Assembly: GCF_006345805.1 (NCBI RefSeq)
Contig: NW_021832231.1
Span: 620,001 to 684,000 of the forward strand
DNA from: Octopus sinensis
Taxonomy: Eukaryota
DNA: 64,000 nucleotides
Reading direction: 5' to 3'
Shown: piece by piece, positions 7,749 through 62,419 of the stretch
Layout: every line of letters starts with the position of its first letter
Numbering within the stretch: position 1 is the stretch's first letter
Made by a program: the position numbers and the translations under genes
The notes under the pieces: model-generated
What the model was told of the DNA's origin: nothing
The model's database searches: none
Seen by the model: only the letters and a program-made list of their open reading frames with translations

Positions 7749-8517
7749 CTATATACAACCACATTTTCTCACTCGAAAATCATGAAAAAGTGTTTGGTGA
7801 TATTTATGTCCTCGACTATGTCTATGTGATATGAATACATGCTGATAATCCATCTCCACCGGAGCACAACACAGTTCGGGAACTGAACCAAAAAAACGTT
7901 GTCCAACTAGGAACTGGAGAATCGCATGATTTGTCATTCCTGCCCACTCATTCCCAGCCAGACTGCAGTGACCAAAACAATATGTGAAATTTATTAAAGG
8001 CAGAACAATCCAATCAATTGAATATTCGCTGGGTCTGATTATCTTCCAACGAGTCTGACACCTCAGGTTAGTATCGGCACTCCTTTTTGATTTGACATTT
8101 TTTGAAATTTTGGGAATCTCATGATTTGTGATTTTGCATTGAAAATTAATATTATTTATAAACTGTTCACCGATGGTTATTTCTTGTGAAATAGTAGAAA
8201 TTTTAATTGTTATTTTTTCCAAATTTAAATTTTTTGTACATAAAATTGTAATATTTTTCTTGTTTTGTGATTTCAGAGTGCATCTCGATGAACATATCTG
8301 GTAATATTTATTGGTGATTATTGTATATGTACCCACCCCATTATTCATTTCTAGAATATAATTTATATTTGTAACCAATAAGAAGAACAGTCTCTGCCAA
8401 ATGAGTAACTGCGACCTCGAAATCATTGACTATATTCTTGTCTATAATGATTTCACTATCAAAAACTTCGAATGTAGTATATTTGGGAAAAAATATACAT
8501 ATAATAAAATATAACAT
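7749..8517 (-). CDS. TGF-beta/BMP superfamily ligand, ~247 aa (intron 8351-8375)
   Basis: Hydrophobic start MLYFIICIFF; one 25-nt GT-AG intron restores the frame; basic cleavage site KSKR; seven-Cys knot C..WIVLP..YCFGHC..TNHAILQ..CCAP..KCGC. Confidence 0.92.
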
Positions 8518-10126: not shown

Positions 10127-13100
10127 ATGCCTTCAACTCCCATTTTTCAAAATTCCATTTTAAAAGGAGTCTCGAATCTCATTAAACAATCCTTTCAACA
10201 CGAAGCTGATATGTGTGAATTAATTATTCAATTTATTCTTCGCTATTTAAAGCACAACTTACTTATTGGACAATTTTCAGACCCCAAGGACACCAAATTA
10301 GTGTCAGACTATCTCAAATTTCTCAAAACTTCGATCAAAGAGTAATAATTTATTAATCAAATATTTTCTTGTGGTGCCATAATAAATTAAGGTGTAATTC
10401 ATGTGGATCCAATTTTCTTCGTTTCAATGGACCAGAGACTGTAATGATGTTATGTGACTACGACTATTCTGTTCTTTTTGACTATCCTTCTCCCGACATT
10501 GTAAGAATATTGAACAATGAATGTTCACTTGATGTCCATTCTAATGTAGAAAACCCGGCTGAACTAATTTGTATAGCAAATGGTCACACTTTAGTGCATT
10601 TCAATGGAAAATACGTGAATGAATTACTTATTGAAAATGGACTCATGTGGCCAGATTTAAACAGTTATTTTAAACAAAAGGGAGAGCCTTTGCGCGGGAA
10701 AATAACTGCGATTGAAAATTTGGAGCAAATTATATTCCTGGACAGTGACCGTTCCAAAAAATCAATCCATGACTGCATCAGACACCTCATTTCGACCCTC
10801 GATGTCTCCTCTCTTCAACCATTGGAGTATTCCTCCCAGTCTCCGAGTATTGGGCAGGGAGTTCTCTACATTGGAAAAGATCAGCAGGCTCGGGCTGTGG
10901 TTTTTTTTGTTTTTTGAGTATAAGATTTTGGGAATTGTGGAGACCTTATTAAAAATTTGGTTGGTTGACAGTGGAGAGATAAGAACGGTGACTGTTTCCG
11001 AGTGTTATGAGATTGACCCCAGTCGTATCGAGTTTCCGACATGTTCAAGAATGTGTAGATTATATGGTCTTGGAGTGGTTGTTTATATTAGGTGTGTCCC
11101 CCACTCCTGTCGGGTTTGGTCTCCTAGAAGACTGTCTTGATTGCTTAGCGGGTCTCAATTCTAACCAAGTTTGTGTTGATTTTAAATAATATTAGTTTGT
11201 TGCTGATATGAGGTTTATGGAACATTTTATTTCAGTGGCTTACCACATGACCAAGCCATCTCTATTTTTGCAGGCATTGAGTCGACTGGTTGGGTCACTC
11301 CATGCCTCCTATCCTCATAATGTCCGGATTACAACTTTCTTTAAGGATTTAGAACAAATAGTCCACAGTATTCTCTGGTTGTATTTTATTTAGATAATTT
11401 GGGATATTCCTCTCTCCAGAGTTTTGTGGATTTGCCACTCTCCACAATGCCCGACCCGCAGACTACAGTTCTGGATATGCTTGTTCCCAATAGAAAGAGA
11501 GATGTGACGAATAGGGAATATTTGGTTGTGTTAATTAGTGTTAATTAATTAAGGAGGAAATAGTTGTGGAGTTGAAGAATTTGATAGCAGTACGTGGGCA
11601 TGTCAATGGTTTATGTACTCACATAATAAACACTTTTCTACGCTATACTAAATTAATGTTGATTAATCGTACGCCGTCCGTCGAATATATTTCTTTTATT
11701 TTGAAATATCTATCAAAAAATATTCAAAGTTGTAAAATTTGTTCAAAGGCATTTGTTGACTTGGGAGGGGTAAGTGTCCTTATTTGTCTATGTCTGCCAA
11801 ATAACCCGGTTATATATGACACCTCTCCCATTCAGGGGGTATTCGATGTTGGGGGAGTTTATAGTGTCCATACCTCCAGTGAAGATGTCATTGGTTTGGA
11901 TTTCTTACTATTTGGGTAGATATTCGTGAGATTGATGGATTGTCTATTCCTGCGGCCTTGGTTGAAAGGGGGGATTTGTGGGCTATTAAGGAGGGTGGGG
12001 TTGAGTTGTGTCCTCAGCCTGTTTCGATGAGGATTTTGGACATCAAGTCCAGCACTTGTGTTGTCTGTGAAGTTCAGGATGGACGAGAAATTGAATTGGA
12101 GAGACTTTTAGAGGCAGCAACATGTCTAAACCATGTTTCCCGTCAATCATTACAACGTAATTGTATTTACATTTTAATTACCGCCAAAAATAAACTATTT
12201 CGTGTCAGGGTTAGACATTTTTATTTATTTTTTACAGTTAAATGAAATTAAATCAAATAATGCCAAAGTGTTGAAAATAGATTACGGAGAGAGATTGACT
12301 GTCCCTGTGTCTTCTCTATTCGAATGTCCTCAGGAGATTAGAGATCATCCCCTCCTAATGGGAGATTATAGATTATATGGCTTGGAATATTCATTAATTG
12401 CCTATAGGAGTTCATAGTAAGCCGATTACTTGTGAAATATTTGCTTCCCTTGTTGATTGTGTTCACACTGCAGTTAAATTAGCAGAATGGCCTGTTGGTT
12501 CATTGGATACTTTTATTGGTTTCCTGTCTACAAATCTCATCGCAAACTTTCAATCGTTGGGATGTTCTTTCCTTTCCGTTCTTAAGTTGTTGGTCGAAGA
12601 TGAAAGCTATTTCGAACCCGCGTCGATTATTCCTCTTTTTCCAGCTATTTCAGGTTGTGTATATTTATTATTCTTAGGTTTTCTGCGTAAAAGTGATGAA
12701 GGGACGAAGAGGGAGGCAGCCGAGTTCATAGAGGCTGTATGTAAAAAGCAGATGACTGGAAATGACGAGAGGAAGACGTCAATTCTTTCAACTTTGAGAA
12801 GAATTTGTGGATATTCCAGGACTTCCCTAAAATCTTCCCAACCTGTGGCTAGCTCGCCGATTAACATGAAACTGGGTTGTGTAATTAGGATAATGTGATC
12901 AGGGCTTCGATCTGATCTGAGAAATGATGGATGTACACATTTAGTTGACGTCGAAGACATTCTATCCTTTGATTTTTCCATTCTTGATAGCATTTTTGTA
13001 GCATTTTTGAATTCCGGATGTGTTTGTAAAATATATTTTGGAGTGGACAAAGACGGTCTCGTAAAAGGGACGAACTGCAATAGTCGTCCCCGCAGAGACT

Positions 13101-13426
13101 CCTACAGATTGACAGTGGATAGAATTAATGTTCGAATCAGGCCTAATTTGGTCCAACGTTGTATTAATGCTGAGTTTGTCTCGGTTAAGGGCGACACGTC
13201 GTTTGTTGCCAGTTTGTGATTCATGGCTTATTTGGTAGTCATTACAATTGATTCGCGTTATTTGAGGACGTTGTTTTGTGATCTGAATTATGTGTATTGG
13301 AGACGCACCGAAGGGGGTGATTGCGTGAAAATGAGCTCGAATGATATTCAGAATATAATCGGTCTTTGGACTGAAGCCGAAATTCTTAATGAAATTGATG
13401 CTTTGAACTGTCGTCTCAGTCATTGA
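10127..13426 (+). CDS. ~985-aa protein: two (helical + extended Tudor) modules, a helical linker and a C-terminal Schlafen/AlbA_2 domain; 12 introns
   Basis: Hand-splicing 12 introns (24-50 nt) gives one open frame of 2958 nt. Tudors: ARAVIL..KIWLVDSGEIRTV..CRLYGV and LFRVRL..KVLKIDYGERLTV..YRLYGV. C-terminus VAFLNSG..KIYFGVDKDGLVKG..RDSYRLTVDRI..IRP..AEFVSV..VYWRR is collinear with SLFNL1. Confidence 0.8.
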
Positions 13427-14109
13427 TTCTAGTTTTTCAAAAAAAAATCTTAGTTTTTTTAAGTTTTCTTTTACGAAATATATGCACAGTCCATTATTTG
13501 TATGAATTCGCATGTAGTCGTGATTAGATGGAACCGAATTGGAATTGAAATTACCTGGTGACATCAATGAATTGTTAGTTTGCATTAGCATAGATCGCAA
13601 TGAATCATGGAGAATAGATTATTGTGGAGAATATAAACTACCTGTGTGCTCTGACAAAAAATCAGCTTAAGAGATTCGCAGTATTTTAAAATTTGTATTA
13701 CCAAAAAAGGGCGCGGCTGGAGGAGCGGATTAGGAGTCGGGTTTTCTTGTGCGGTTGCTGCGTTTATGGATATTTCATTTGGAATATTTATATTCTACAA
13801 GTTGAATTACTTCTGATTTATATTGCAGAAAAAAATTCTAGTCCAATCAGTTTAGAATCTTTCGGAAGTTTCAAAAAAGTCCAAAAATTATATCTCAAAT
13901 TTCCTAGAACGGAATTTTACTAGACATCATTACAAATTTACTATTCACTAAACAAAATTTTGACTAATTTTTTTTTGAAAATCTTAATTTTTTCAATTTA
14001 TTTTTTTAATTAATTTTAAAGCCATTCATTTTGACTAACCATTTTGACTAATTATTTTTTATTGCTAAAACTGAGGGAAAGATATCTAATAATCGAATAT
14101 CAAAATTAG

Positions 14110-26948: not shown

Positions 26949-29848
26949 CTAATTCAAACCAGAGAATTCTTGAGATTCATCTAAGACAGGCAGTATATCC
27001 CTGGACAAGGGAACGTTCCAAATATCGGAAGCATACTGAGCCACAGCACGGTCACTAGAGAAGAACCCAGCAGCAACGATGTTGTTCAAGCACATTGTAT
27101 TCCACACATTAGAATTCTATCAAAATACGGCACACAACATACCAAGTAAGCAGCCTCTACCAAAAGCTGTTTCTGAATATAATCATCATAGTCACTCATG
27201 ACCATGAAAGGATCATCAGACAGCATAGTTTGACATATTTCGCAGAATAAATTAGGCTCCTCCCTGCTGAAAAATCCGCCTCTTATTTGTTCAATACATT
27301 CAATTAATTGAGGACTCCTTGGATAATAAAAACGACGATTGTATCTACACTTCTTTACTTACAAAATACCCAGAAGTGTAATTTTCCTTAACTTCGTGGA
27401 TTGTCATTCCGAATATAAATATATTTTCCATCCCAACCTGTTCGGCCATTTCTACATTGGGCCCATCAAACGTCCCCAGAGTGACAGCCCCGTTCAACTG
27501 GCAATAAATCAACTGACCAACCATAAATTTCATGTTTCCAGTTCCAGACGCTTCAGTTCCTGCGAGTGAGAGTTGTTCACTCAAATCAGCTGCAGGGACC
27601 ATTTTCTCTGCAAACGACATTTTATAATCCGGAAGGACAAACACCCTCAGGTCTTTATTGGTCTCCGGATCACTGTTCACCACAGCAGCCACATTGCATA
27701 TCAATTTGATGATGAGTTTTGCAATTCTGTAGCCGGGAGGAGCCTTCCCCCCAATTATGACAGTCCTGGGGACGACAGTGTAGTCATCCAAACCAGCCTT
27801 GACCCGTTTGAGGCGGTTGTAGAGCGTTATTATATGAAGGCAGCTCAGAAGGTGTCGTTTACTTTCTTGAACTGGTTTGATATGCACATCAAACATGGTC
27901 GAGGGGTCAATCAAGAATCCAAACAACTTTTTAACATACAAAGCGAATTTATTTTTATTACTCTATGACATACTGAAACACACAACCTGTTTTATCAAAC
28001 AAATCTCGTCAATAATCTGTCGATCTGACACAAGTGGCCTCAGTTTGTTCAACTCACGCAAATCTGTTATGAATCCGTCGCCAATTTGCTAAAAGTAATA
28101 CTTTAAACGTACACGGCGAATAAAATCTGTCAAAGATGGATTGCAGTAGACTAGCCATCTCCTGGGAGTGATTCCGTTGGTTTTGTTTTGAAACTTGGCA
28201 GGAGTCATTTTATAAAAATCAGGAAATCTTGTGATTTATACAAAATATATATACACGTCAGTTTTTACTAATTTTGAATGAAGTTTGGCGACTCCGTTGA
28301 CGGAATGTGACCCCACTATGCAAAGATTGGCCATGTTGACACGTTTATTACGATCCTCCTCAATCAGACTCATTCTCTCCAAGACATCCTCGTCATTGGG
28401 CCAAAACTCAGAGACCGCCTTGCAAAATCACTGCACATTCAACCTGTAAATGCTTGCGATTTATTTTATGGATTATCTGCATTATTCTGGGCAACAATTT
28501 AGTCAACATTTTTAGTGGCCATCGCTCGAGTGCCTCGGGAAGGAGAGTGTGGTTGGTATATCCGAACGTTCTTGTGCAGATATCCCAAGAATAAGACCAA
28601 TCAAGGCCTTCGACGTCCACCAACAGTCTCATCAATTCAGGAACAGCCAAGGATGGACTCGTATCGTTCATTTGAATGGCCACCTACTAATTTATAATAA
28701 CCAATTGCCTTTTCTGGAAACTGGTCGAATGAAGTCCTAGGTTCTTTCGAGTCCTTGTACCGCCGAATAATATCCTGGAGAGTCGCTGAGGCCAGGAAGT
28801 ACTCTTGTTTGAGACGGAGTTCCTTACCTTCAAATCTCTTGAAATAAAGGGCATGAATACCTCGTCATTTGGGTAGAGAACACGTGTTATGCTTTCAGCA
28901 AGGTATGGGTCTCTCATAGCTTTGCCGTAATTTCCTGAGTGGACTAGACAGTGACGAAAACTAATAACTTACAGCAATCCAGAAATAATACGGCTGAGGG
29001 TTTGGCAGCCCACAAACGCATAGTTATGACGTGGTTATTCCCATATCCGGGGACAGGTGTGTCGTAGGGAATTGCATACACAACCTACTTATTAAGAAAA
29101 AGATCACTTCAGTGTCAATCCACTGTGTTTGTCCATCCACTCTGATTGTTTTTCCGTAAAACTTAACAGGAACGATATATTCCTGGATGCACCTCTCCCA
29201 GGGATTGCTATACTTTATCCAATTGTCAAGCTCTTCTCTCTTAATTAATTTAAATAAAATTTAGACATGGTCGGTATCGTAAATTACTTGAGTAAATACG
29301 CCATATTCATAGCGCAGTCCATAACCCATGCCTGCAATGCCCAAAGTAGCCATCGAGTCAAGATAACAGGCAGCCAGTCTTCCCAGTCCACCATTTCCTA
29401 AACCAATTTCAGGTTCCATGTTTTCTAATTCTTCCAAATCTAGTCCCAGCTGGTTAAATAAGAACATGTTGGACATACTTGATAAACGGCTTCTTCGCAC
29501 TGCCCGTCTATTCCAACGTTTATCATGGAATTTATCAAAAGACGACCGACGTAGAATTCAATGGACAAATAATAAATTCTCTGGGAAAATAAGATCAAGG
29601 AAAACCTTGGAATCCAGTTTGTGATGGTGTTGGCTCGTTCTGATCCACCGGGAAGCCATTTTGTCGCACACCGTGTGAGCCAAAGAGATGTAATAATCAC
29701 GTTTGGTAGCAATATTGCGGTCCTTGAGGCGAGAGTTGTGCAAATGACGATTAAAGCTTTGTTTAATGTCTCTTACATCCTTTGGGTCTTGAATATTCCT
29801 TCCACTGTTCTCCTCTCGTTTTTTAGTGTCAAAAAATGGATATTGCAT
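26949..29848 (-). CDS. PYG: Glycogen phosphorylase, divergent; multi-exon, full-length copy
   Basis: [48 protein letters not shown] (PLP Lys), GFFSSDR; introns e.g. 27117-27142, 27345-27369, 27498-27521. Confidence 0.95.
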
Positions 29849-34249: not shown

Positions 34250-34930
34250 TTTATTTGTTTGAAAGGTGTTTGCTACATATCTTAAATACAAAAAATTTTA
34301 CGATTTTATATTTTGTATAAAATCAAAAGCTGAACTTTGAAAACTTAACAAATGTTTTTAAAAAATGGAAAATATGTGACATGGGCAAAACAAGATTGAA
34401 TATGAGTGTCGACAAAGATACTTCATTGTTCAAAATGACATAATCAGAAAAGTCATTCGAAATTGTGAAGTATGTAAATTTGCCTGTCCATTAAGAGTTT
34501 TAATTCTTTTTAATTTTTAATGTAGGTTGGTGATATGAATCATCATATTTTTGCTTCTACTCCGAATGAAAGGTTTCGGCTAGATCTTGTAGATTTAAAA
34601 AAGTTTTCAGTCTCAAATAATAATTACAGATGGATTTTAACAGTCATCGATGTTTATAGTAGGTCTTTCAACAATTTATTCAGATTTGCATTTGTCAGAC
34701 CACTTTTTCATAAATCTTCAAAAGAAGTATGCAACAACTTAAGATCACTTTTTCTACCTTGCAAAATTTTGCAATCAGATAATGGTTCAGAATTCAAGAA
34801 TGTGTCTCTAAGAAATCTATGCAAAGAGTTCAATGTAGTTCAGATACATGGAAAACCAAACAATCCCCTTACACAGGGGATTATAGAACGTTTTAATCAA
34901 ACCATCACCCGAAAACACTCCAATATGATT
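34250..34930 (+). mobile_element. Ginger/KRBA2-like rve integrase with mini-introns, truncated by a LINE tail
   Basis: CEVC, RFRLDLVD, WILTVIDVYSR|FAF, LQSDNGSEF, QGIIERFNQT; introns 34497-34525 and 34663-34683. Confidence 0.8.
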
Positions 34931-35135
34931 TTTTTATTTATTTATAGACCAATGACGGGTAAGCCAGTTAATTATTATAATCCCCGTGATCCCCGATTCA
35001 AGCGAGGGAGATCTTTCTGAAAGGTTCGATCCTGCCCACATGATCGGCCTGAGACGACGATGTCCCAGGGTCAGAGTTCTAGAAGTCTTTTTTTCGGTAG
35101 GCATTAAGTCTTCGCGGCGAGTACATCCTTTCCGT
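34930..35135 (-). mobile_element. Short 3' tail of I-like LINE, antisense
   Basis: Minus strand reads ..RTLTLGHRRLR.., then GGGGATCAC, then AAATAAATAAAAAAA. Confidence 0.55.
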
Positions 35136-35139
35136 ATTC

Positions 35140-36778
35140 AATAAGTTGACTATCCTAAACGACCCATACGCTCATACAAGGACACCAACCCGCAGAAGAG
35201 ACAGCCCATCATCTCCGGACCTGTCCCTCTGCACTCCATCCTTGGCTGGATACATCTTGTGGAATGTTCGTTATGGTTTCTCGAGCGACCATAACCCCAT
35301 TGTACTGACACTTAGAAGGCCTTTCTGTCCAACGCGCCGTCCTACGAAGTTCAAAAATTACTCGAAGGCTAACTGGCATGGTTTCGGGCTGTATGTGGAC
35401 AACTGCCTGCTCGATCTCTCTATGGAAAATTGCTCGGTGGAAAGGACGGCCAACTGATTCGGACTAATAATGGATTCAAGTGGAGTCGTCTCGTTGGACG
35501 ATTATGTCACAGAAATTCCTGTGCCACCTTCTAAAAAACGCTAAGAAGGATCAATTGTCTTATCGGTGAGCAGGACGGAGGAACTGAGGTCGTTGCCCAC
35601 AATTCCTCGGAACCTGCTCGCAAACTTGCAAACAAGATTATGAAGTACTACGTATCGATCAGCCATAAAGACTTTTCTCGCACTCCACATATTGAACGAC
35701 TCGGACCGCGACCAGAACCGTATTCCACCTTCTTAACACCGGATGATGTTGACAAGGCTATTAAATCTCTACGTCCCACCCGTGCTTGTGGCCCCGACGG
35801 GATTTGTGCTGTTCACCTCAAACACCTGGGACCCCGGCACGGACCGTACTATATAACGACTCCATCAACTTACGTACGATACCTAATATATGGAAAAACT
35901 CCCTAATTACGCCAATTCTAAAGCCTGGGAAACCAAAGGATGTTCCTTCTTCATACCGCCCGATCTCAATAACTTGTATTTTATCGAAAGTATTGAAAAA
36001 ACTTGTATTAACGCGAATCTCTCCTGTCCTACAATTGCCAGAATTTCAGCACGGTTTTAGACCAGATCGTTCTACAACGACCCATTTGTGTTCTGTCTCC
36101 CAGTTTATTACTGACGGTTTCAGCATGAAAACTAATGACCCAGACATTATGTTCTTATCCTATGCGGACGACCTGATTATCGCTGCAAGAGATAAATCTC
36201 CTTCTGTGTCTGTTGCAATGGTCCAGTCACACCTTAACCGTGTATGTGATTGGCTATCTGCTAACATGTTGTGTGTGTCTGCATCTAAATCCAAATTCAC
36301 CCTTTTCACTACTGATAGAAAATTCAAGAATGGACCGGAATCATTCATTGGAGACAATCCTATTCCCTCTTCGCGTACCCAGAAGATCCTTGGCGTGGTT
36401 TTCGACTCCTTAATGACGTTCTCATGTCACGTGGAGGAGGCTCTAGCTAAAGGTCTTCGGAAGTGGAACGTCTTGAAAGCGCTGTTAAAAAAGAGTCCCT
36501 TCCCCTTGAAAGATTGTGTCAGCAAGGTCTACCAACAATTGATTGCCCCGACGGTTGGGTATGCCTGCTCAGCCTGGACGTTTGCAATTGCTTGTTCGAA
36601 AGCGGAACGTTTGAACTTACTCAGAAGGCGGCCGTCTCGGGGTTACGGTTGGGTCATCAGAAGATCATTTAAGGAGAGTCCAGCTGTTGTTGGAGGAAGG
36701 GATCACCTAATTAGTTAGTTTTGACCTATCTTTCTCGGTGATCTTGGAGTTAATAAATAAATGTCTAATTAAAAAAAT
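35140..36778 (+). mobile_element. I/Jockey-like LINE (APE + RT), internally deleted
   Basis: SPDLSL..SDHNPI (APE); GPDGI, SYRPIS, QHGFR, YADD, KILGV. The RT segment between GFS and YADD is missing; A-rich tail. Confidence 0.88.
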
Positions 36779-37015
36779 CGGACATAACGAGGAAGGAAAT
36801 ACAATCAGTTCCATTTTTACACATATAAAATTAATTAATGTTCACTTTATTTTATTAATAATAAAAAAAATTGTTTGTATTAAATTAATTTTTAAAAATT
36901 TATTTTAATATAGAACTATATTTAAATATAGAATTTATTTAAATATAGAACTATCTTGTGTGGCAATTTTTACCAACGTTATAGAACCCTAAAACAATAC
37001 GAATATAAATTTGAT

Positions 37016-40000
37016 ATGGCAAACCATATTCTCGACTTAACCAAATCACACATTTATTTATTAAAATGTAATTTTTTTCAAAAAATGGTACTTTAATACC
37101 TATTTTATACATATTCCAGATTACAGAGTCAATGCTCAAAATAATCGAGGAATTCGATTCCTTACAGACAAATATCAGCACCGAAAGTAATTTATTTAAA
37201 TTTAAACAGAATTTGACATTATTCCCGTCATCAAGACATTTGTTGACGCCCTATCCCGCTCTGCAGAATGCTCGATCGAATTCTCCCTCCTAAACCTGAA
37301 AACGCTAAAAAAGATTTTGTATTTTCTGTCCAACTGTACATTCGAAATGACTATTTTTAGCCCAAATTGACCGATCTGTAAAGTCGAATGTCGCTTTCAT
37401 CACAGTTAATTCGATTGTTGGCATCAAAAGTGTCACTGATGGGGAAAATGGGGAATTTTTAGTTGCCAATATTGTGGAGGTTGGTCACTGAAAGTTTTTT
37501 TTAAAGATTTTTGGAGCAATTTTGACTTCTAGTTTGGTTACTTGTCTGTCTTGTGGTCTCATTTGCGACTCTCTGCGGTGGTGCTTCTCGTTTTATTTCG
37601 ACCTCCACCTCAACAGTTAGTATTAATTTTATTTAATTACAATATTTATTTAATACTTAACTATTTAAGAGTGGATTCGTAAAAGATTAGAAGGAATAAT
37701 AACCGATTCAATTTATTTGATATTCACAAATATGCCCTCAGTTTCGATTCAACCAGACAAACCATCTGCCGAGGACACCTCTTCCTTGGACTCCCACACC
37801 ACCGAGAGTATTGACGGGCTACTTAATGCCTCAGTGGATAGTCGAGTCTCCAACAAATGCACGAGGGAGATTCTGAGATTTCTCGTATCTCTGATTGACG
37901 TGGAAGACAAACACAATGACGAGATTCGAGTTGTTTTTGGTCTGGAATTGCTTTCGATTGTCCTCTCAACTCCTAATTTGTCATCCCAGACACACCTCAC
38001 TCCTCTCATTCGAACAGAAATGTCGAAAAAGCTATTTATTGTATATTGGTTAACCAATGAATTAATTTAGTTGGCGGGGACTAATTCATTCAATCTGTTC
38101 AGTCGGTCTTTGATTCTGTCCTTCAACATGTTTTCAAAGTTACTGCCATTTTTGAGAATTCCATTCGAAGTAGTGTTCAAATTAATGGTCAGTTATATAT
38201 TGTCAAACTGGTCGGCCGGCTGGGGAGTGGGACGTGTGTGTCTGCGGCCAATGACCTCGCCTGTGAACTGTTGTGTGGCTTCCTGAGTCAAGAAGATGTG
38301 CCCCTCCAGTTGTACGTTAACTATGATTGCCACCCCTCGTCCGCCAATGTCCTCGAACTTATAATCTCGGCCCTTTTTAAGGTGAGGGAGTAACTTATTG
38401 CAGCAAGTGTCATTTATTGGGACATCTTCCTCGAATGGTGTCTTTTCTGCCAGCTGCATGTCTTCACTCCGCAGTCTGTTGTCTCCTCTCGAACATATTT
38501 ACAAACGGAACCAAATGTCCTCTCCCATGTCAGGTAGGAATGTCTAACCACGTTTTAGACACATTCCGAACGATACATCGACACGGGAACCACTGCAGTG
38601 TTCTACAAACCCCACAAAAACTCAGCCCCGTTGATATAAGTCACAAAATGGAGCACAAGAAGGTTATTTCACAAAAATATTTGCAGAGAGTGCATGAGTG
38701 TATAAAAATGTTTGGGGACAGTCCAAGCCGGTGTTTTCAACGACTTGTGGAGTTGGGGGCAGTTCCGAGCTGTGATCCCGCGGATTTGGTCTCTTTTATA
38801 TCAGAATACTACGAATATATCGACATTACTGCCCTCGGAATATTCTTTGGCAAGCAGAGCAACAGAGATGTATTGACAGCTTTCTTGGAGTTGTGTTGTT
38901 TGTCAGTGATGGTAGGTCGTATGACTTTGCTGGTCTGAGAATGGACTCTGCGATTCGGAAGTTCCTCGACGACTTTCATTTGCCAGGCGAGGCCCCGGTC
39001 ATTGCGAATATTTTGGAGGTTTTCGTGAGGCGTTTTATGGTGATGGTGAGTGGATATTGGTAGAAGTGTAATGAGGGAGTGTTTGGGAGTTACGACGAGG
39101 CATTTCTCCTGGCCAATGGAATAATGGTCCTCAACGTGGACCAGCACAACAAATTACTACAAGCCACTAACAAACCAATGACATGTCACGTATTCCCTGA
39201 TTGCTCATTTCCTCAGGAATTTATTGAGAGTGTCGGAGGGACTAAAAACCTGAACGAATGCACAGAAATGCTCAAACAGATATATAATTCTGTCAAGTTA
39301 GTCACCTGCTTGTAGTCTAGGATGTCTGAGATTGTAATAACTGCCACCAAGAGTGGAAGTAGTAGAGACAAATATCTCTGGAATGTATTGGTCGCTGTTA
39401 TTTGTAGAAAAAACACGAAACTTGTACCAACGACAGTTATATCCAGGCTGAAGGGAGTTTGTGTGACTCTGAAATATTTCTTCTCTTCTGGAGTTCTTCT
39501 GTGGCTGCTCTATCTTACGTTTTTGATAAGGAAATAACTGCAATGTCAGTACAGGATATCCTCGAGTCCTACAAGTTAATTAAATATCATTAATTGATTA
39601 GGAAATGTGCTTCGATTGCAGTCCACTTTAACTTGATTGCCATTTTTGACTCGATCACAATCGCCTTGTTTAGAATGTCGCATCTCCTTAATGATTCTCA
39701 CGTTTTTAATGGTTGACCAATTTTTTAATAGAATGGCGGGAAAACGTCTTTTGTCGAAATTTTTGCAAATAATGAGAAGGCGCAATTGGCTGGGAAAACT
39801 GCTTTTGATTTGGTGGCACAGCACGGGGATCTCATGCGTGATGGATGGAAGAATGTTTTGGAGGCTCTCCTCAGTTTATACACAGCCAGACTCCTCCCAT
39901 CAACTTTGATTGAAGTTGGTCGTTGTTTATATACTCCAGGTGGACAGTCTGTTTGAAAGTGGGAAGAAGCGTTCTCTTAATAAAGTTCTCGATCTCAAAA

Positions 40001-41878
40001 AAACCTCAAAAAACTCTACAGGCGCACTCTCGTCTTTGTTTAACTTTTTTTCGTCAAACAACAACGAGAACACATTGAGGGGTGAATGTCCATCATTGAG
40101 CAAGGCACAGAGCATTGTGTCCGAATGGAAGATTGAAATGATTGTGAGTAATATGAAGTCCCTACACAGCCAATCCCTTGTTGAATTTATTAAGGTTAGT
40201 CAAGAACTCCCAGACCTGTTTAGATACTGACTGATTGTATTCTCGATCCAAATTGCCTAGTGGGAGTGCACGGTTGCAGTATGTCAGAACCCTCTCTTCT
40301 TTTTTATGACATTCTTGTCCGAGTTGCAATCAATAATCGGTTTGGGTGGTTGGATTCATTAACAGAGATCGACTGTCACTGTTTTTCCAGTCAGTCAAAA
40401 CATGTGTGCTTCATTTGGTTACCAGTTCTGCTTATCCGGCCTTACTGGTGGAGGAAGTCATCCACGGGTATCTCCGAATACTTACTTCCTTCATAAACCA
40501 GGAGGTGATTCCATATGAGGTAAAAGGATTATTTAATTCTGGAGGTGATGAGCTTAATGACTTGTTTCTTGTCTTTGAATTTGGACAAAATAGAGTATTC
40601 CCGGACATCTTTGCTGCTTGTGGGTTTCGTGGCCACTTTCCTGCAGAATCATTACTTACTGCTGGAGTGTTCCGACGGTCTCCCAATATGTTTTCTGGTC
40701 ATTGAAGTATTCACTGCCTGTGTGGTCCTGCCTGATAATTTGATAAGTCACTGTCAGCAAAGTTTGTCCAATAATGTTTAAATTCCATTTAGAGACTCAA
40801 TGTTCCGCCGGCGATGATTTGAGTCGGTGGTTTGACTATGTGAGCACTGACCGAATCCCCATCGGGGCAATACAGATGACCAAACTGTCTATCGGAGTGG
40901 ATATCCTCGAGCAGCTTGTGAACGGGGGGTTTTGTGCAGAGGTGACCCACCTGGAATCATTCGTCCATTTCATAGCAGCTCTGTGTTCGGCCGTCTATCA
41001 ATGTTATTTTGACAATTTGAACTAAATAGGTCACACGGAGAAGGAGAAAACGTTACAGGACGTAGAACCTTCAGTAGCCACGGAATATTTGTCAAAACTA
41101 TCACTGAAAGTTGATTTGAATGTGTATTCTGCAGGTTATGGACGCGACCAGTTCTGTTTGTGTGCAGTTGGCTAGTTCAGAGAGAGTGAAGAGTTCTGAC
41201 TGGTGGCGTGTTCTCCTAAGCCGTATATTCTGATGAACTACATAGAAATGGCACTATACACTCAGGACGATCGTCCTGTTATCAGATTGTACTCATTCGA
41301 CTGCATTCAAAAGTCTCTTGTGCATGACCGGTTGTTCGTCATTGGCAGTCAGACGTGGAATCAGTGTTTTAGCATGGTGTGCTGTTGTGTGGCTATTTCA
41401 GATCATTTTCCCTATATTCAGTCGAATGTTGGCTCGCAGTCAGGAAGGGGAGGACGTGGTGAGGATAAGGGCTGTTTCCATGCTTTGCAAAGTATTTTTA
41501 TTTTTTATATCCTCAGATTTTTATAAGAAATGTCAACTTTTTTGCGAGTTGTGACAGCTTTGGTGTTTTTTGGAAGAAAATTGTCGAATTGGTTTGTGCA
41601 ATGGCAGCCTCGTCAGACAAGAACGAGTCATTGGTTAATTTGGCTTATCTATTTCTCAGAGAAATGGCATTTTAGATCAGTTTAAGACTGTTTTGATGGT
41701 TGTCAAGTCGATGAGGTTGCTCTGTCGTCAGGAATCGGGTTCCGAATTGTTGGTTGAGACTGTGGAACGACTGAGGCAACTTGCACCTGAGTTGGTGGGA
41801 GAGTTGACCGAGAAAGATGAGCCCAAGGAAGACCCTAAGGAAGAGTGTGTTCTATATCCTCCACTCCCAATTATATAA
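37016..41878 (+). CDS. GBF1: Golgi Arf-GEF GBF1 (DCB-HUS-Sec7-HDS), many mini-introns
   Basis: HUS box LYVNYDC; Sec7 catalytic FHLPGEAPVI; IMVLNVDQHN; MRDGWKNVLE; INNRDRL. Confidence 0.9.
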
Positions 41879-42044
41879 ACAATTTAACATATATTTATGT
41901 AATAAATATTGTACTCATAATGTCCTATTTATATTGAATACAGCGGCGTTACAGCAACTCTATTCAGTTTGAAAATGCGATAATTATCAATCCAAAATGA
42001 TATCTTTGTCCAGTATATTTTATGAAGATGCAATAATTATCACT

Positions 42045-47757: not shown

Positions 47758-50418
47758 TCTGAATATAATCATCATAGTTCCTCATGACCATGAAAGGATC
47801 ATCAGAGAGCATAGTTTGACATATTTCGCAGAATAAATTAGGCTCCTCCCTGCTGAAAAATCCGCCTCTTATTTGTTCAATACATTCATTAATGAGGACT
47901 CCTTGGATAATAAAAACGACGATTGTATCTACACTTCTTTACTTACAAATATACCCAGAAGTGTAATTTTCCTTAACTTCGTGGATTGTCATTCCGAATA
48001 TAAAATATTTTCCATCCCAACCTGTTCGGCCATTTCTACATTAGGCCCATCAAACGTCCCAGAGTGACAGCCCCGTTCAACTGGCAATAAATCAACTGAC
48101 CAACCATAAATTTCATGTTTCCAGTTCCAGACGCTTCAGTTCCTGCGAGTGAGAGTTGTTCACTCAAATCAGCTGCAGGGACCATTTTCTCTGCAAACGA
48201 CATTTTATAATCCGGAGGACAAACACCCTCAGGTCTTTATTGGTCTCCGGATCACTGTTCACCACAGCAGCCACATGCATATCAATTTTATGATGAGTTT
48301 TGCAATTCTGTAGCCGGGAGGAGCCTTCCCCCCAATTATGACGTCCTGGGACGACAGTGTAGTCATCCAAACCAGCCTTGACCCGTTTGAGGCGGTTGTA
48401 GAGCGTTATTATATGAAGGCAGCTCAGAAGGTGTCGTTTACTTTCTTGAACTGGTTTGATATGCAATCCAAACATGGTCGAGGGGTCAATCAAGAATCCA
48501 AACACTTTTTTAACATACAAAGCGAATTTTTTTATTACTCTATGACATACTGAAACCACAACCTGTTTTATCAAACAAATCTCGTCAATAATCTGTCGAT
48601 CTGACACAAGTGGCCTCAGTTTGTTCAACTCACGCAAATCTGTTATGAATCCGTCGCCAATTTGCTAAAAGTAATACTTAAAACGTACACGGCGAATAAA
48701 ATCTGTCAAAGATGGATTGCAGTAGACTAGCCATCTCCTGGGAGTGATTCCGTTGGTTTTGTTTTGAAACTGGCAGGAGTCATTTTATAAAATCAGGAAA
48801 TCTTGTGATTATACAAAATATTATACACGTCAGTTTTTACTAATTTGAATGAAGTTTGGCGACTCCGTTGACGGAATGTGACCCCACTATGCAAAGATTG
48901 GCCATGTTGACACGTTTGTTACGATCCTCCTCAATCAGACTCATTCTCTCCAAGACATCCTCGTCATTGGGCCAAAAACTCAGAGACCGCCTTGCAAAAT
49001 CACTGCACATTCAACCTGTAAATGCTTGCGATTTATTTTATGGATTATCTGCATTATTCTGGCAACAATTTAGTCAACATTTTTAGTGGCCATCGCTCGA
49101 GTGCCTCGGGAAGGATAGTGTGGTTGGTATATCCGAACGTTCTTTTGCAGATATCCCAAGAATAGACCAATCAAGGCCTTCGACGTCCACCAACAGTCTC
49201 ATCAATTCAGGAACAGCCAAGGATGGACTCGTATCGTTCATTTGAATGGCCACCTACTAATTTATAATAACCAATTGCCTTTTCTGGAAACTGGTCGAAT
49301 GAAGTCCTAGGTTCTTTCGAGTCCTTGTACCGCCGAATAATATCCTGGAGAGTCGCTGAGGCCAGGAAGTACTCTTGTTTGAGACGGAGTTCCTTATCTT
49401 TAAATCTCTTGAAATAAAGGACATTAATACCTCGTCATTTGGATAGAGGACACGTGTTATGCTTTCAGAAAGGTATGGGTCTCTCATAGCTTTGCCGTAA
49501 TCTCCTGAGTGGACTAGACAGTGACGAAAACTAATAACTTACAGCAATCCAGAAATAATACGGCTGAGGGTTTGGCAGCCCACAAACGCATAGTTATGAC
49601 GTGGTTATTCCCATATCCCGGGACAGGTGTGTCGTAGGGAATTGCATACACAACCTACTTATTAAGAAAAAGATCACTTCAGTGTCAATCCACTGTGTTT
49701 GTCCATCCACTCTGATTGTTTTTCCGTAAAACTTAACAGGAACGATATATTCCTGGATGCACCTCTCCCAGGGATTGCTATACTTTATCCAATTGTCAAG
49801 CTCTTCTCTCTTAATTAATTTAAAATAAAATTTAGACATGGTCGGTATCGTAAATTACTTGAGTAAATACGCCATATTCATAGCGCAGTCCATAACCCAT
49901 GCCTGCAATGCCCAAAGTAGCCATCGAGTCAAGATAACAGGCAGCCAGTCTTCCCAGTCCACCATTTCCTAAACCAATTTCAGGTTCCATGTTTTCTAAT
50001 TCTTCCAAATCTAGTCCCAGCTGGTTAAATAAGAACATGTTGGACATACTTGATAAACGGCTTCTTCGCACTGCCCGTCTATTCCAACGTTTATCATGGA
50101 ATTTATCAAAAGACGACCGACGTAGAATTCAATGGACAAATAATAAATTCTCTGGGAAAATAAGATCAAGGAAAACCTTGGAATCCAGTTTGTGATGGTG
50201 TTGGCTCGTTCTGATCCACCGGGAAGCCATTTTGTCGCACACCGTGTGAGCCAAAGAGATGTAATAATCACGTTTGGTAGCAATATTGCGGTCCTTGAGG
50301 CGAGAGTTGTGCAAATGACGATTAAAGCTTTGTTTAATGTCTCTTACATCCTTTGGGTCTTGAATATCCTTCCACTGTTCTCCTCTCGTTTTTTAGTGTC
50401 AAAAAATGGATATTGCAT
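47758..50418 (-). pseudogene. PYG: 3'-truncated glycogen phosphorylase copy with many 1-bp indels
   Basis: Lacks the last ~65 codons, is fused to the hAT 5' region and has frameshifts relative to copy 1. Confidence 0.8.
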
Positions 50419-52614: not shown

Positions 52615-55566
52615 CTTATTTTTGAATTTTATTTATTAAGATTGTGTTATTTGAAAATATTGTGTCATTTATTATTTCAGGATTTGTATTTTTAATTTTG
52701 CAGTAGCCATAGTCAGAGGCAATACTCTGGCTATCTGCTAATGACGATTTTTCTCTTGACCTAATTTGATTATAATTTTGCAGTCTATCATACATGCAAT
52801 TTCAAGTGCCTTTTAACCGTGTATTTTTTCCTCAATAAAGATTAAAAATTTACAACAAATTTATGTGATAAAGACTTATTAATCCACTCGTAACAGCTGG
52901 AAATTAATTTCCTTTTTTAATAAGGAAATAGGCAACATCACTTTTTAATTGTCTGTCATCAAATTTGTTACGACTCTTTTCTTCAATTTCTAAATATTCT
53001 TCATTCAAATGAATTGCTCCAATTATGAGGTTACTGACTAAATTTATTTTTTCAAAGATTTTGATCCCGTGGCTGTCTTTGTCCATCATACTCTCCAGGG
53101 GTCGGAAAATATTTCGAAAGCAAATTCTTGACATTCTCGGAAATATTGAAAAATTTAAGAGCCATCTTTAACCGCTTGTCCAAAGCAAAAATTTAATAAT
53201 AATTAAGAATTCATTTTAAAGAATAAAATTATTTAGTCTCAAAAATGAGAAATTTGATTCCTCATTTCTTTGGAGAGTTGTTTAATGTCTGAGTCGAAAC
53301 TAGTTAATTTTAATCTGAGGTTTGATTTTAAGACTGTAATTTTTTTTCTTAATCTCAATTTGTTAGCAAACTTCATGTGCAATTTTTTTAATTCATAAAA
53401 AGAGTCCAGAAGAGAACTCCGAGTATTTGATTCATCTATTGATATAAAAATCGAATTATTTAATTTTATGTCAATAACTTGTTGAATAGATACATTCGAA
53501 GACATCTTAAATGTCCTTCGGAAACTATTTTTGCAGATAAAAATATATTTATTATCTTTTCATGATTTCTGTTTTATTTAAAAAAATAGTGAAATACTTT
53601 TCCACAGGTTTCAATAAAATATGACTTGATCTTCCCAGGATTCCCTTTTTCCCTTTTTTCGATCTCATGACTTATCAAAAAACTAGCAATATTTGTATTC
53701 CTGGACTGTTGCCAATATTTAAAAACTGAATTTTTAATCTCAATATTTTGATCAAGTTTTTCACACAGGTTTCTTTCGTGAGTCACCAATTGAATTTTTT
53801 GCAGCGTTGTGCTAAAATGTTTCTCTAAATTTAATTTTTTGTTTTGATTTAAAGTTGCCTGACAAATAAGGGATTTTTGAAGTTTTTATGAGTTAGATTT
53901 AATACAAAAGATTCACTCCATTTTGATTTAAAATGACAAATATGACCAATAATACATCTCAGGGGAAGACTGACAATGAAAAAGAATTCAGAATTTAATT
54001 AATTACTTTTTGAGAGGTTAGCTACAGTTTGTTAATTCGGTCAATTTTATATATTCTACTTATTTCTCGATTAAGTGATTTATCGTTTCTACCTGTAATT
54101 AATTAATTTGTTTTTCGCACTTTATACTATTTCGCACTTTATTCAAGAAACTGAATTGAAAGCAAAGAGGAGCGTTGTACTTATATGTTAGTGGTTCCCG
54201 AATTAAACGTGCTATGATATTGTGAGCTGTTTCGTTAGCTGTTCTGCATAATAAGAATTATAACAGAAAATCATTTTTTGAGTCACCCGAGTCTTCATGG
54301 TTTTGGGGAAAAATCTTGATTTCCATCCTTTGCGTAAACAGTCAAGCAATTCTTTCGCAAAAAATTAATTTAATACAAAAAATTAAAAACAACAAAATTG
54401 TTTATACTTTTGGTTAAACCTGGAAAAATGAATGAAAAGATTGAAAATTTTAATAAGGAATAAAAATTATTATTTTGCCAGATTTTTAAAAAAATAATAG
54501 AAATAAAAAAATATCTATTCAAAAACAGTATTCATAAATCTTGAGCGAATTTCCCAACTATTTAGATACATCAGATGAGATATCACTATAAGCATTTGAC
54601 ATGGAAGACATATTCATAATTGGTCAGTCGGCTTGATTATTTACGTATATAAACCATAATTCAAATCTAAATGTCCTTTATTTGTTTGAAATGTGTTTGC
54701 TACATATCTTAAATACAAAAAATTTTACGATTTTATATTTTGTATAAAAGCAAAAGCTGAACTTTGAAAACATAACAAATGTTTTAAAAAAATCGAAAAT
54801 ATGTGACATGGGCAAAACAAGATTGAATATGAGTGTCGACAAAGATACTTCATTGTTCAAAATGACATAATCAGAAAAGTCATTCGAAATTGTGAAGTAT
54901 GTAAATTTGCCTGTCCATTAAGAGTTTTAATTCTTTTTAATTTTTAATGTAGGTTGGTGATATGAATCATCATATTTTTGCTTCTTCTCCGAATGAAAGG
55001 TTTCGGCTAGATCTTGTAGATCTAAAAAAGTTTTCAGTCTCAAATAATAATTACAGATGGATTTTAACAGTCATCGATGTTTATAGTAGGTCTTTCAACA
55101 ATTTATTCAGATTTGCATTTGTCAGACCACTTTTTCATAAATCTTCAAAAGAAGTATGCAACAACTTAAGATCACTTTTTCTACCTTGCAAAATTTTGCA
55201 ATCAGATAATGGTTCAGAATTCAAGAATGTGTCTCTAAGAAATCTATGCAAAGAGTTCAATGTAGTTCAGATACATGGAAAACCAAACAATCCCCTTACA
55301 CAGGGGATTATAGAACGTTTTAATCAAACCATCACCCGAAAACACTCCAATATGATTTTTTTATTTATTTATAGACCAATGACGGGTAAGCCAGTTAATT
55401 ATTATAATCCCCGTGATCCCCGATTCAAGCGAGGGAGATCTTTCTGAAAGGTTCGATCCTGCCCACATGATCGGCCTGAGACGACGATGTCCCAGGGTCA
55501 GAGTTCTAGAAGTCTTTTTTTCGGTAGGCATTAAGTCTTCGCGGCGAGTACATCCTTTCCGTATTC

Positions 55567-57205
55567 AATAAGTTGACTATCCTAAACGACCCATACGCTC
55601 ATACAAGGACACCAACCCGCAGAAGAGACAGCCCATCATCTCCGGACCTGTCCCTCTGCACTCCATCCTTGGCTGGATACATCTTGTGGAATGTTCGTTA
55701 TGGTTTCTCGAGCGACCATAACCCCATTGTACTGACACTTAGAAGGCCTTTCTGTCCAACGCGCCGTCCTACGAAGTTCAAAAATTACTCGAAGGCTAAC
55801 TGGCATGGTTTCGGGCTGTATGTGGACAACTGCCTGCTCGATCTCTCTATGGAAAATTGCTCGGTGGAAAGGACGGCCAACTGATTCGGACTAATAATGG
55901 ATTCAAGTGGAGTCGTCTCGTTGGACGATTATGTCACAGAAATTCCTGTGCCACCTTCTAAAAAACGCTAAGAAGGATCAATTGTCTTATCGGTGAGCAG
56001 GACGGAGGAACTGAGGTCGTTGCCCACAATTCCTCGGAACCTGCTCGCAAACTTGCAAACAAGATTATGAAGTACTACGTATCGATCAGCCATAAAGACT
56101 TTTCTCGCACTCCACATATTGAACGACTCGGACCGCGACCAGAACCGTATTCCACCTTCTTAACACCGGATGATGTTGACAAGGCTATTAAATCTCTACG
56201 TCCCACCCGTGCTTGTGGCCCCGACGGGATTTGTGCTGTTCACCTCAAACACCTGGGACCCCGGCACGGACCGTACTATATAACGACTCCATCAACTTAC
56301 GTACGATACCTAATATATGGAAAAACTCCCTAATTACGCCAATTCTAAAGCCTGGGAAACCAAAGGATGTTCCTTCTTCATACCGCCCGATCTCAATAAC
56401 TTGTATTTTATCGAAAGTATTGAAAAAACTTGTATTAACGCGAATCTCTCCTGTCCTACAATTGCCAGAATTTCAGCACGGTTTTAGACCAGATCGTTCT
56501 ACAACGACCCATTTGTGTTCTGTCTCCCAGTTTATTACTGACGGTTTCAGCATGAAAACTAATGACCCAGACATTATGTTCTTATCCTATGCGGACGACC
56601 TGATTATCGCTGCAAGAGATAAATCTCCTTCTGTGTCTGTTGCAATGGTCCAGTCACACCTTAACCGTGTATGTGATTGGCTATCTGCTAACATGTTGTG
56701 TGTGTCTGCATCTAAATCCAAATTCACCCTTTTCACTACTGATAGAAAATTCAAGAATGGACCGGAATCATTCATTGGAGACAATCCTATTCCCTCTTCG
56801 CGTACCCAGAAGATCCTTGGCGTGGTTTTCGACTCCTTAATGACGTTCTCATGTCACGTGGAGGAGGCTCTAGCTAAAGGTCTTCGGAAGTGGAACGTCT
56901 TGAAAGCGCTGTTAAAAAAGAGTCCCTTCCCCTTGAAAGATTGTGTCAGCAAGGTCTACCAACAATTGATTGCCCCGACGGTTGGGTATGCCTGCTCAGC
57001 CTGGACGTTTGCAATTGCTTGTTCGAAAGCGGAACGTTTGAACTTACTCAGAAGGCGGCCGTCTCGGGGTTACGGTTGGGTCATCAGAAGATCATTTAAG
57101 GAGAGTCCAGCTGTTGTTGGAGGAAGGGATCACCTAATTAGTTAGTTTTGACCTATCTTTCTCGGTGATCTTGGAGTTAATAAATAAATGTCTAATTAAA
57201 AAAAT
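55567..57205 (+). mobile_element. I-like LINE, copy 2
   Basis: Same ORF translations as 35140-36778. Confidence 0.88.
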
Positions 57206-57442
57206 CGGACATAACGAGGAAGGAAATACAATCAGTTCCATTTTTACACATATAAAATTAATTAATGTTCACTTTATTTTATTAATAATAAAAAAAATTG
57301 TTTGTATTAAATTAATTTTTAAAAATTTATTTTAATATAGAACTATATTTAAATATAGAATTTATTTAAATATAGAACTATCTTGTGTGGCAATTTTTAC
57401 CAACGTTATAGAACCCTAAAACAATACGAATATAAATTTGAT

Positions 57443-62305: not shown

Positions 62306-62419
62306 ACAATTTAACATATATTTATGTAATAAATATTGTACTCATAATGTCCTATTTATATTGAATACAGCGGCGTTACAGCAACTCTAGTCAGTTTGAA
62401 AATGCGATAATTATCACTC

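Follow-up and report, generated by a model that had tools for sequence, protein, structure and literature searches.

Schlafen (SLFN) folds and extended Tudor domains are known to meet in Caenorhabditis elegans, where the 5′ nuclease of PIWI-interacting RNAs (piRNAs), PUCH, is a trimer of single-Schlafen proteins (PMC10567574). Catalytic residues were identified there in the TOFU-2 subunit and not in TOFU-1, which binds TOFU-2 and also contacts the extended Tudor domain of the PETISCO protein TOFU-6 away from its cage. The AlbA_2 fold of these proteins is shared by the transfer-RNA (tRNA) nucleases SLFN11, SLFN13, SLFN14 and SAMD9 (PMC10359600, PMC12680541) and by SLFNL1, which has a single C-terminal Schlafen fold and unknown function (PMC12492265, PMC10567574), and whether Schlafen nucleases act in piRNA biogenesis outside nematodes is a question raised in the discussions of PMC10567574 and PMC12492265. 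Here we describe a gene at positions 10127–13426 (plus strand) of a 64,000-nucleotide (nt) stretch, hereafter the window, which spans positions 620,001–684,000 of contig NW_021832231.1 in the Octopus sinensis assembly GCF_006345805.1. Judged by its best hits, its domain order and its shared degeneracy, and not by a tree, the window protein belongs, as a diverged and internally doubled copy, to a protostome family without published description that joins armadillo-type (ARM) helices, a Tudor module and a pseudo-Schlafen domain.

The closest parallel to this architecture is the pairing of PUCH with TOFU-6, which likewise has a single Schlafen fold per chain, includes a non-catalytic subunit in TOFU-1, and ties a Schlafen protein to an extended Tudor whose cage is not used, as is proposed here (PMC10567574). 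The window protein, however, combines its Tudor and Schlafen parts and a predicted ARM solenoid in a single polypeptide, its Tudor is partial, and no membrane helix or SPRY domain is seen; moreover, PUCH is known from C. elegans, whereas the present family occurs in ticks, a nemertean and a probable dicyemid. Unlike SLFN11, SLFN13, SLFN14 and SAMD9, the window protein has one lobe only, lacks the catalytic carboxylates, and shows no helicase or STAND module. SLFNL1, compared by description only, keeps its catalytic residues (PMC12492265) while the window protein does not, and the portions of PMC12492265 and PMC10567574 covered here mention no Tudor or ARM part in it.

The gene is probably not from the octopus. 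The assembly (2.72 Gb, 13,516 contigs) has chromosome-scale contigs whose genes contain long introns and on which haemocyanin of the molluscan type is encoded (C5 and C28 hold 35 of 37 matches), while the introns in the window measure 23–29 nt even in a glycogen phosphorylase gene. Among 51 animal genomes, introns so short are reported only in myxobolid myxozoans and in Dicyema japonicum (PMC13644364), a dicyemid with about 5,000 genes, and the renal sacs of cephalopods are the habitat of dicyemids (PMC6736024). Since such introns are known from D. japonicum and dicyemids inhabit this organ, the contig likely derives from a dicyemid parasite co-sequenced with its mollusc host.

The domain assignments follow from several lines of comparison. 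In a Pfam scan of nine raw frames of the gene, TUDOR was matched at 10952–11140 (18.3 bits, E 0.0026, below the cut-off of 23) and at 12178–12414 (23.3 bits, E 6.9e-5, above it), and SLFN_AlbA_2 at 12899–13216 within one exon (23.8 bits, E 6.8e-5, below the cut-off of 25.3); the spliced model contains one Schlafen match, that is, a single SLFN fold per chain. The C-terminal third gave five matches among 1.84 billion representatives, four of them uncharacterised proteins of ticks and the nemertean Tubulanus polymorphus, with a TUDOR match in three of the four as well. Searching with a profile built from four Schlafen domains extended the set to at least 36 proteins among the 7,992 candidates scored, a scope in which members in other phyla may be missed: 22 come from named ticks (seven genera), one from the nemertean, and 13 from other assemblies, where the whole frame lies on contigs of 2.7–4.8 kb that are likely transcripts. 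When 35 members were scanned at E 0.01, AlbA_2 was found in 29, TUDOR in 20, ARMC5 in 11 and Arm in seven, and their source names read 'uncharacterized' or give a single-domain annotation only. The fifth match of the C-terminal third, P0002, has repeated AlbA_2 and no Tudor; it ranked first because 12 of its repeated stretches added to the score, and it is not counted in the family. P0002 is 2,337 amino acids (aa) long and consists of tandem repeats with about 22 AlbA_2 stretches in all.

When 29 full-length relatives, with the window protein excluded, were combined into a profile, it matched the spliced model three times, at the first Tudor module with the following helix (26.6 bits), at the second Tudor module (11.8) and at the Schlafen domain (48.6), compared with 19.7 for the best of 20 host Tudor loci, some of which are handicapped as controls by exon breaks. 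The two units of the window protein, taken together as a profile, align with the family in a stretch of 144 columns that spans the junction between Tudor and helix (E 1.3e-7, probability 94%). In the opposite direction, the best match of the nemertean protein in the 2.7 Gb assembly is the window gene, ahead of the stand-alone host Schlafen gene L001, so that best hits are found in both directions tested, and a profile that includes the window Schlafen exon matches chains of SLFN11, SLFN5, SLFN12 and SAMD9. The tick (for example XP_037518385.1) and T. polymorphus (XP_074653860.1) proteins share with the window protein the domain order, the Tudor-to-helix junction and the degenerate cage and active site, but have one ARM-Tudor unit and keep E209 (pig SLFN11 numbering), whereas the window protein has two units and has lost it. 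The original prediction that Tudor modules, helices probably of the ARM type and a Schlafen fold are parts of a single polypeptide is borne out, with the same order in relatives outside nematodes.

Other searches added no members. Word-indexed searches yielded none of 80 candidates for the Schlafen exon against longer proteins and the query itself only among 7990 scored for the nemertean protein; a PDB sequence search with the read-through C-terminal third gave no matches, the ESM Atlas no usable match for two relatives, and seven further small-contig stretches (six Tudor loci and one PIWI locus) no family-profile match. A metagenome scan returned one of 206 stretches, an ordinary bacterial AlbA_2 gene (L066) kept as a control only. 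Two exon-by-exon searches of the assembly, one of them stricter at first look, found no host orthologue, which is not evidence of loss.

The Schlafen domain has lost its catalytic residues. In pig SLFN11, each of the substitutions E204A, E209A and K211A abolishes cleavage and D248A impairs it (PMC10359600). With the catalytic columns mapped by alignment to chain 7fex, the window protein has N, H, V and K at these positions, at an ungapped 26-residue spacing to the FLN motif. In the relatives, 34 of 35 of which are of the tick type so that the residue counts are not independent, an acidic residue is found at the E204 position in none of 34 and at D248 in none of 35, E209 is Glu in 34 of 34, and K211 is replaced by Arg in 28. 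The host gene L001 and the bacterial L066 keep all four residues, which also fixes the register of the alignment. The domain is at the same time the best-conserved part of the family, with invariant C-x-F-L-N, G, V-x-G, P and R columns, and the Schlafen motifs quoted in the original prediction are present in the sequence; an active RNase coupled to the Tudor part is not supported, as the window protein is no active Schlafen RNase by the residues tested and the family lacks two of the three carboxylates. By eye only, similar amphipathic, coiled-coil-like helices, possibly for pairing, follow the Schlafen domain at the ends of the window protein (13340–13423), P0007 and L001.

The Tudor modules have undergone a comparable change. 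The methyl-arginine cage of extended Tudors consists of four aromatic residues and an Asn. It was assessed at these five positions, three of which correspond to F740, Y766 and N768 of SND1 (PMC3281842). Among the relatives, the β2 aromatic residue is found in 0 of 32, the β3 aromatic in 1 of 31, the β4 Tyr in 8 of 31 and the Asn in 7 of 31, while the corresponding numbers in 14 host Tudor domains, where the cage is mostly intact, are 11, 12, 13 and 8. The window modules keep 1 and 2 of the five residues and, by the residues tested, would not read methyl-arginine; a PIWI-binding scaffold in the sense originally proposed is not supported. Another Tudor gene with a mostly intact cage is present as near-identical copies on several small contigs (L060, L061 and L063; C12464, C12760).

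The overall fold was approached through an AlphaFold model of a tick member, P0034, calculated from a 35-sequence alignment (predicted local distance difference test, pLDDT, 76.6; predicted template-modelling score, pTM, 0.61); a single-sequence fold of the nemertean protein (pLDDT 37) was not used. The helices before and after the Tudor module, residues 27–506, match one ARM solenoid (Z 16.7, root-mean-square deviation 3.4, 221 aligned), although Z values of this size are for helical repeats only moderately above background, and the sequence profile of the relatives likewise matches ARM proteins. The Tudor module is thus predicted to be inserted into one continuous armadillo solenoid. Residues 213–334 superpose on the extended Tudor of Papi (Z 14.2, deviation 2.1, 121 of 213 residues) and residues 543–730 on the AlbA domain of SAMD9 (Z 13.9, deviation 3.1, 160 aligned), and Foldseek agrees for the Tudor and the Schlafen (SAMD9/SLFN) parts, so that the C-terminal AlbA_2 fold proposed earlier agrees with Pfam and the family profile in the window protein and with the model of its relative. 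Of the two extended-Tudor modules originally described, the Tudor barrels stand by Pfam and family profile, and the full extended form is less certain: relative to the extended Tudors of Papi/TDRD2, TDRD1 and SND1, the barrel, the preceding strands and a helix of the model superpose at 2.0–2.6 Å over about 115–125 of 200 residues, the aromatic cage is lost and ARM helices follow directly, with upstream strands that might complete the fold out of order. In the window protein itself, the two best of 12 PDB sequence matches of segment 11554–11802 are designed ARM proteins, with single stretches at a weak 4–5 bits, and segment 12419–12823 alone has no significant ARM match. The window protein is described as an ARM-Tudor unit occurring twice and followed by a Schlafen domain, with the ARM character of its own helices weakly supported.

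The doubling is evident in the gene structure. An open reading frame of about 985 aa under 12 mini-introns had been proposed, and such a model runs from an ATG at 10127 to a TGA at 13424–13426 on the plus strand with 984 aa and zero internal stops; eleven introns are 24–29 nt long, the first is 50 nt, and that at 12380–12407 is of the GC-AG type. Its product contains a tandem duplication, residues 1–414 and 415–820 being 22% identical over 283 columns; their local alignment scores 137, whereas 500 shuffles reach at most 65. A 13th intron at 10571–10594 and a donor at 10900 in place of 10897 are proposed because the internal repeat suggests them, the intron closing a 9-residue gap against unit 2 and having the same phase as intron 11894–11919, and the resulting model of 13 introns, 14 exons and 977 aa raises the repeat score to 152 (maximum 61 in 300 shuffles). 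All four internal introns of unit 2 have a same-phase counterpart in unit 1, with two pairs exactly aligned, one within 3 residues and the fourth, outside the aligned part, at 85 and 86 residues from a shared RLYG motif; two of these four matches depend on the repeat-guided splice choices. Since the duplication carries position-matched introns, the single-gene model is supported. Within the Schlafen frame itself, an ATG occurs no earlier than the last 30 codons, and the joining introns 11525–11553 and 12876–12902 give neither room nor a start codon for a separate gene. As a control, the glycogen phosphorylase gene in the window, read by eye from 12 junction stretches, has ten introns of 23–29 nt, including a GC-AG and a stop-free in-frame one. 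On these grounds 10127–13426 is a real gene with one frame of 977–984 aa, single-copy in the assembly (one match of one); its model comes from sequence and homology, and four RNA runs with the same label gave no contig that maps to the stretch.

What such a protein might do is suggested by the nematode system. Because a dead Schlafen domain joined to a cageless Tudor corresponds to the TOFU-1/TOFU-6 pairing within one chain, the window protein can be read as a scaffold or non-catalytic subunit, and by this analogy we favour, with a probability of about 0.4, a pseudo-nuclease scaffold that resembles TOFU-1 but has a Tudor module in the same chain, and that would take part in piRNA-type processing together with a Schlafen-like partner encoded by a stand-alone gene. 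The two proteins together would form an RNA-processing nuclease, most likely in the piRNA or germ-granule pathway, in which the dead Schlafen domain would be the RNA-binding or dimerising half, as TOFU-1 and SLFL-3/4 are for TOFU-2, the ARM-Tudor part would dock the nuclease on precursor-handling proteins, a task for which C. elegans uses the extended Tudor of a separate protein, TOFU-6, acting in trans, and the doubled unit would offer two docking platforms.

Components that such a pathway would need are present in the assembly. A PIWI gene with tiny introns on other contigs (L004/L058) has an RG-rich N-terminus and intact-looking catalytic motifs, and a diverged PIWI-like gene, probably non-slicing given its altered catalytic motifs, lies about 200 kb away on the window's own contig (L005/L065; C8702:420,000–427,000, minus strand). 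Further PIWI-type copies are found on small contigs (L009, L014 and L015 on C12468, L016 on C7758), of which those on C12468 resemble L004 and contain stops in the matched stretch. All nine PLDc_2 matches, the domain of Zucchini-type phospholipase D enzymes, fall on chromosome-scale contigs and none on small ones, a weak negative given that tiny introns fragment such matches and that the part of the assembly belonging to the parasite is not established. For the partner, a stand-alone tiny-intron Schlafen-like gene, L002 (C10215, about 112,400–113,200, minus strand), groups with host L001 (94/89) and shares a His/Cys-rich insert with it. L001 (L001:1393-2169, C26) is an intronless gene on a host chromosome with a single Schlafen domain and all four catalytic residues, which makes it a candidate for an active TOFU-2-like enzyme in the mollusc.

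Several observations weigh against this reading. First, L002 is the sole stand-alone partner found on the tiny-intron contigs, and it has Lys and Glu swapped at the E209 and K211 positions, so that it may be inactive too; since E209 and K211 form a salt bridge in SLFN11 (PMC10359600), the exchange may be a compensatory charge swap. Next, the piRNA or germ-granule role is a prediction from analogy and co-occurrence, and Tudor and PIWI genes occur together commonly in animals, which gives no specific tie of the gene to the pathway. The Tudor module spans about 60% of an extended Tudor in the relative's model and the surface bound by TOFU-1 may be incomplete, while a simple hydropathy scan gave no sign of an SLFL-3/4-type membrane anchor (19-residue maximum 1.86 in an ARM-type helix, none C-terminal). 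Finally, the placement in the family has its own weak points: a tree of 21 Schlafen domains leaves the window protein unplaced (end branch 3.52) and puts the nemertean member beside stand-alone genes (85/95), a grouping of the window protein with stand-alone Schlafen genes is not rejected (approximately unbiased test, p-AU 0.17), six rows from host Tudor loci outscore the 11.8 bits of the second Tudor module, and the helical segments alone score 12.5 and 13.1 against the family, below shuffle maxima of 19.2 and 17.7.

The expansion of paralogues in ticks would fit antiviral defence equally well, and a possible, though rather unlikely, alternative is a role in innate immunity, apart from piRNAs, as a sensor of RNA or an effector. 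The ARM-Tudor part would then detect a signal of infection by a virus or of stress, and the dead Schlafen domain would either bind RNA (tRNA or structured RNA) or activate or restrain an active Schlafen partner. The tick-type members are 27–98% identical to one another, with five entries in Rhipicephalus microplus and three in Amblyomma americanum, and such expansion and fast change are a hallmark of conflict genes (10.1101/674358); the closest solved folds, SLFN11 and SAMD9, are antiviral tRNases (PMC10359600, PMC12680541). The window gene, however, is single-copy, and the terms looked for do not occur in the supplementary files, as far as readable, of two studies of virus infection in ticks (PMC12342294, PMC4652421), which is a weak point as gene names may differ.

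With both the cage and the active site degenerate, with a window copy as diverged as its end branch indicates, and with ARM solenoids serving as general binding platforms, the protein could also have become a scaffold for protein contacts only, its Tudor and Schlafen chemistry lost and its pathway unrelated to small RNAs. This we regard as unlikely, as the Schlafen domain is the best-conserved part and the invariant E209 of the relatives suggests a retained RNA- or partner-facing site. The opposite possibility, which comes close to the original idea, is an active nuclease with a rewired site built from neighbouring conserved acids or completed in a homodimer. It draws on an Asp adjacent to the E204 position, present in the window protein and in 32 of 34 relatives, on a D/E following the D248 position in 35 of 35, and on the only partial effect of D248A in pig SLFN11 (PMC10359600), but it is quite improbable, since the canonical controls L001 and L066 carry neighbouring acids besides the catalytic ones and the window protein lacks both E204 and E209, each indispensable in pig SLFN11, at an ungapped spacing to the FLN motif. 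Least probable of all is a modelling artefact, in which neighbouring genes, two or three in number, or a duplicate in decay would have been read as one frame. In its favour the gene model without transcript support, a first intron of twice the usual length and 891 GT/GC-AG candidates of 18–70 nt from which a frame could be threaded by chance may be cited; against it stand the position-matched introns, the domain order of the relatives, joining introns that leave no space for a gene start, and the lack of any frameshift or stop after splicing.

The features of the gene are listed in Table 1. A minus-strand frame of 218 codons (12962–13618) and a Pfam CDtoxinA match (E 0.017) were taken as chance. 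Elsewhere in the window, a TGF-beta family ligand, divergent from the studied gene and probably of the dicyemid, is encoded at 7749–8429 (minus strand, Pfam E 5.9e-11), and a frameshifted second piece of glycogen phosphorylase lies 21 kb from the intact-looking copy (27348–27962 and 48167–48664, minus strand). Two copies of a block of at least 7.4 kb, 99.96% identical, lie 20.4 kb from each other (34526–41900 and 54953–62327); the block contains integrase-like and reverse-transcriptase-like frames and a long gene piece and represents either a recent duplication or an assembly artefact.

Table 1. Positions in the window of the gene, its repeat units, domains and selected introns.
Feature	Position	Strand	Basis
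Entire gene, 14 exons; 977 aa, or 984 aa with 12 introns	10127..13426	+	model
Repeat unit 1, aa 1-407: Tudor module between two helical parts	10127..11524	+	repeat alignment
Repeat unit 2, aa 408-812	11554..12874	+	repeat alignment
Intron 1, 50 nt, least certain junction; exon 1 backed by the internal repeat	10342..10391	+	
Probable extra intron, 24 nt, in frame, stop-free, overlooked in the original prediction	10571..10594	+	inferred
Intron between the two repeat units, 29 nt, contains no ATG	11525..11553	+	
GC-AG intron, same codon and phase as GT-AG intron 11067-11091	12380..12407	+	
Intron from helical region to Schlafen exon, 27 nt, in frame, contains TGA	12876..12902	+	
Tudor module 1 (N-terminal part of an extended Tudor), 1/5 cage residues	10687..11102	+	Pfam E 0.0026; 26.6 bits
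Tudor module 2, 2/5 cage residues	12015..12418	+	Pfam E 6.9e-5; 11.8 bits
Helical segment, one armadillo-type helix pair (unit 1 counterpart 10166-10461)	11554..11802	+	
Helical segment after Tudor 2 (counterpart 11103-11398)	12419..12823	+	ARM in relatives
Schlafen/AlbA_2 domain without catalytic residues	12860..13387	+	Pfam, profile, alignment
N820, H825, V827, K862 (pig SLFN11 E204, E209, K211, D248)	12923, 12938, 12944, 13049		

While the parts are known, the ARM-Tudor-Schlafen architecture appears to be undescribed in the literature covered, in agreement with the original statement that no functional description of it is known, although subscription papers and bioRxiv supplements could hold a mention. 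A term search of the supplements of PMC12342294, PMC4652421 and PMC6736024 gave no occurrence, the accessible text of domain-architecture papers, including 10.1101/674358, does not mention Tudor, and PMC12492265, in its accessible portion, covers vertebrates.

The family fuses two types of domain whose mutual binding is known from PUCH and PETISCO in nematodes, and thereby provides a named, testable candidate, for which tick cell lines are an easy test system. That a probable dicyemid has retained the family suggests that its function is needed, and its expansion in ticks suggests a role in conflict. Because the catalytic and cage residues are lost, the protein alone should neither cut RNA nor read methyl-arginine, and the partner is the thing to look for. 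A more far-reaching, and doubtful, idea is that PUCH-type Schlafen nucleases are not a nematode invention and that an ancient protostome pair of a fused ARM-Tudor pseudo-Schlafen scaffold and a stand-alone Schlafen-like subunit processes piRNA precursors beside or instead of Zucchini; if true, such a pair would have survived in a dicyemid as well, although dicyemid genomes are among the most reduced of all animals.

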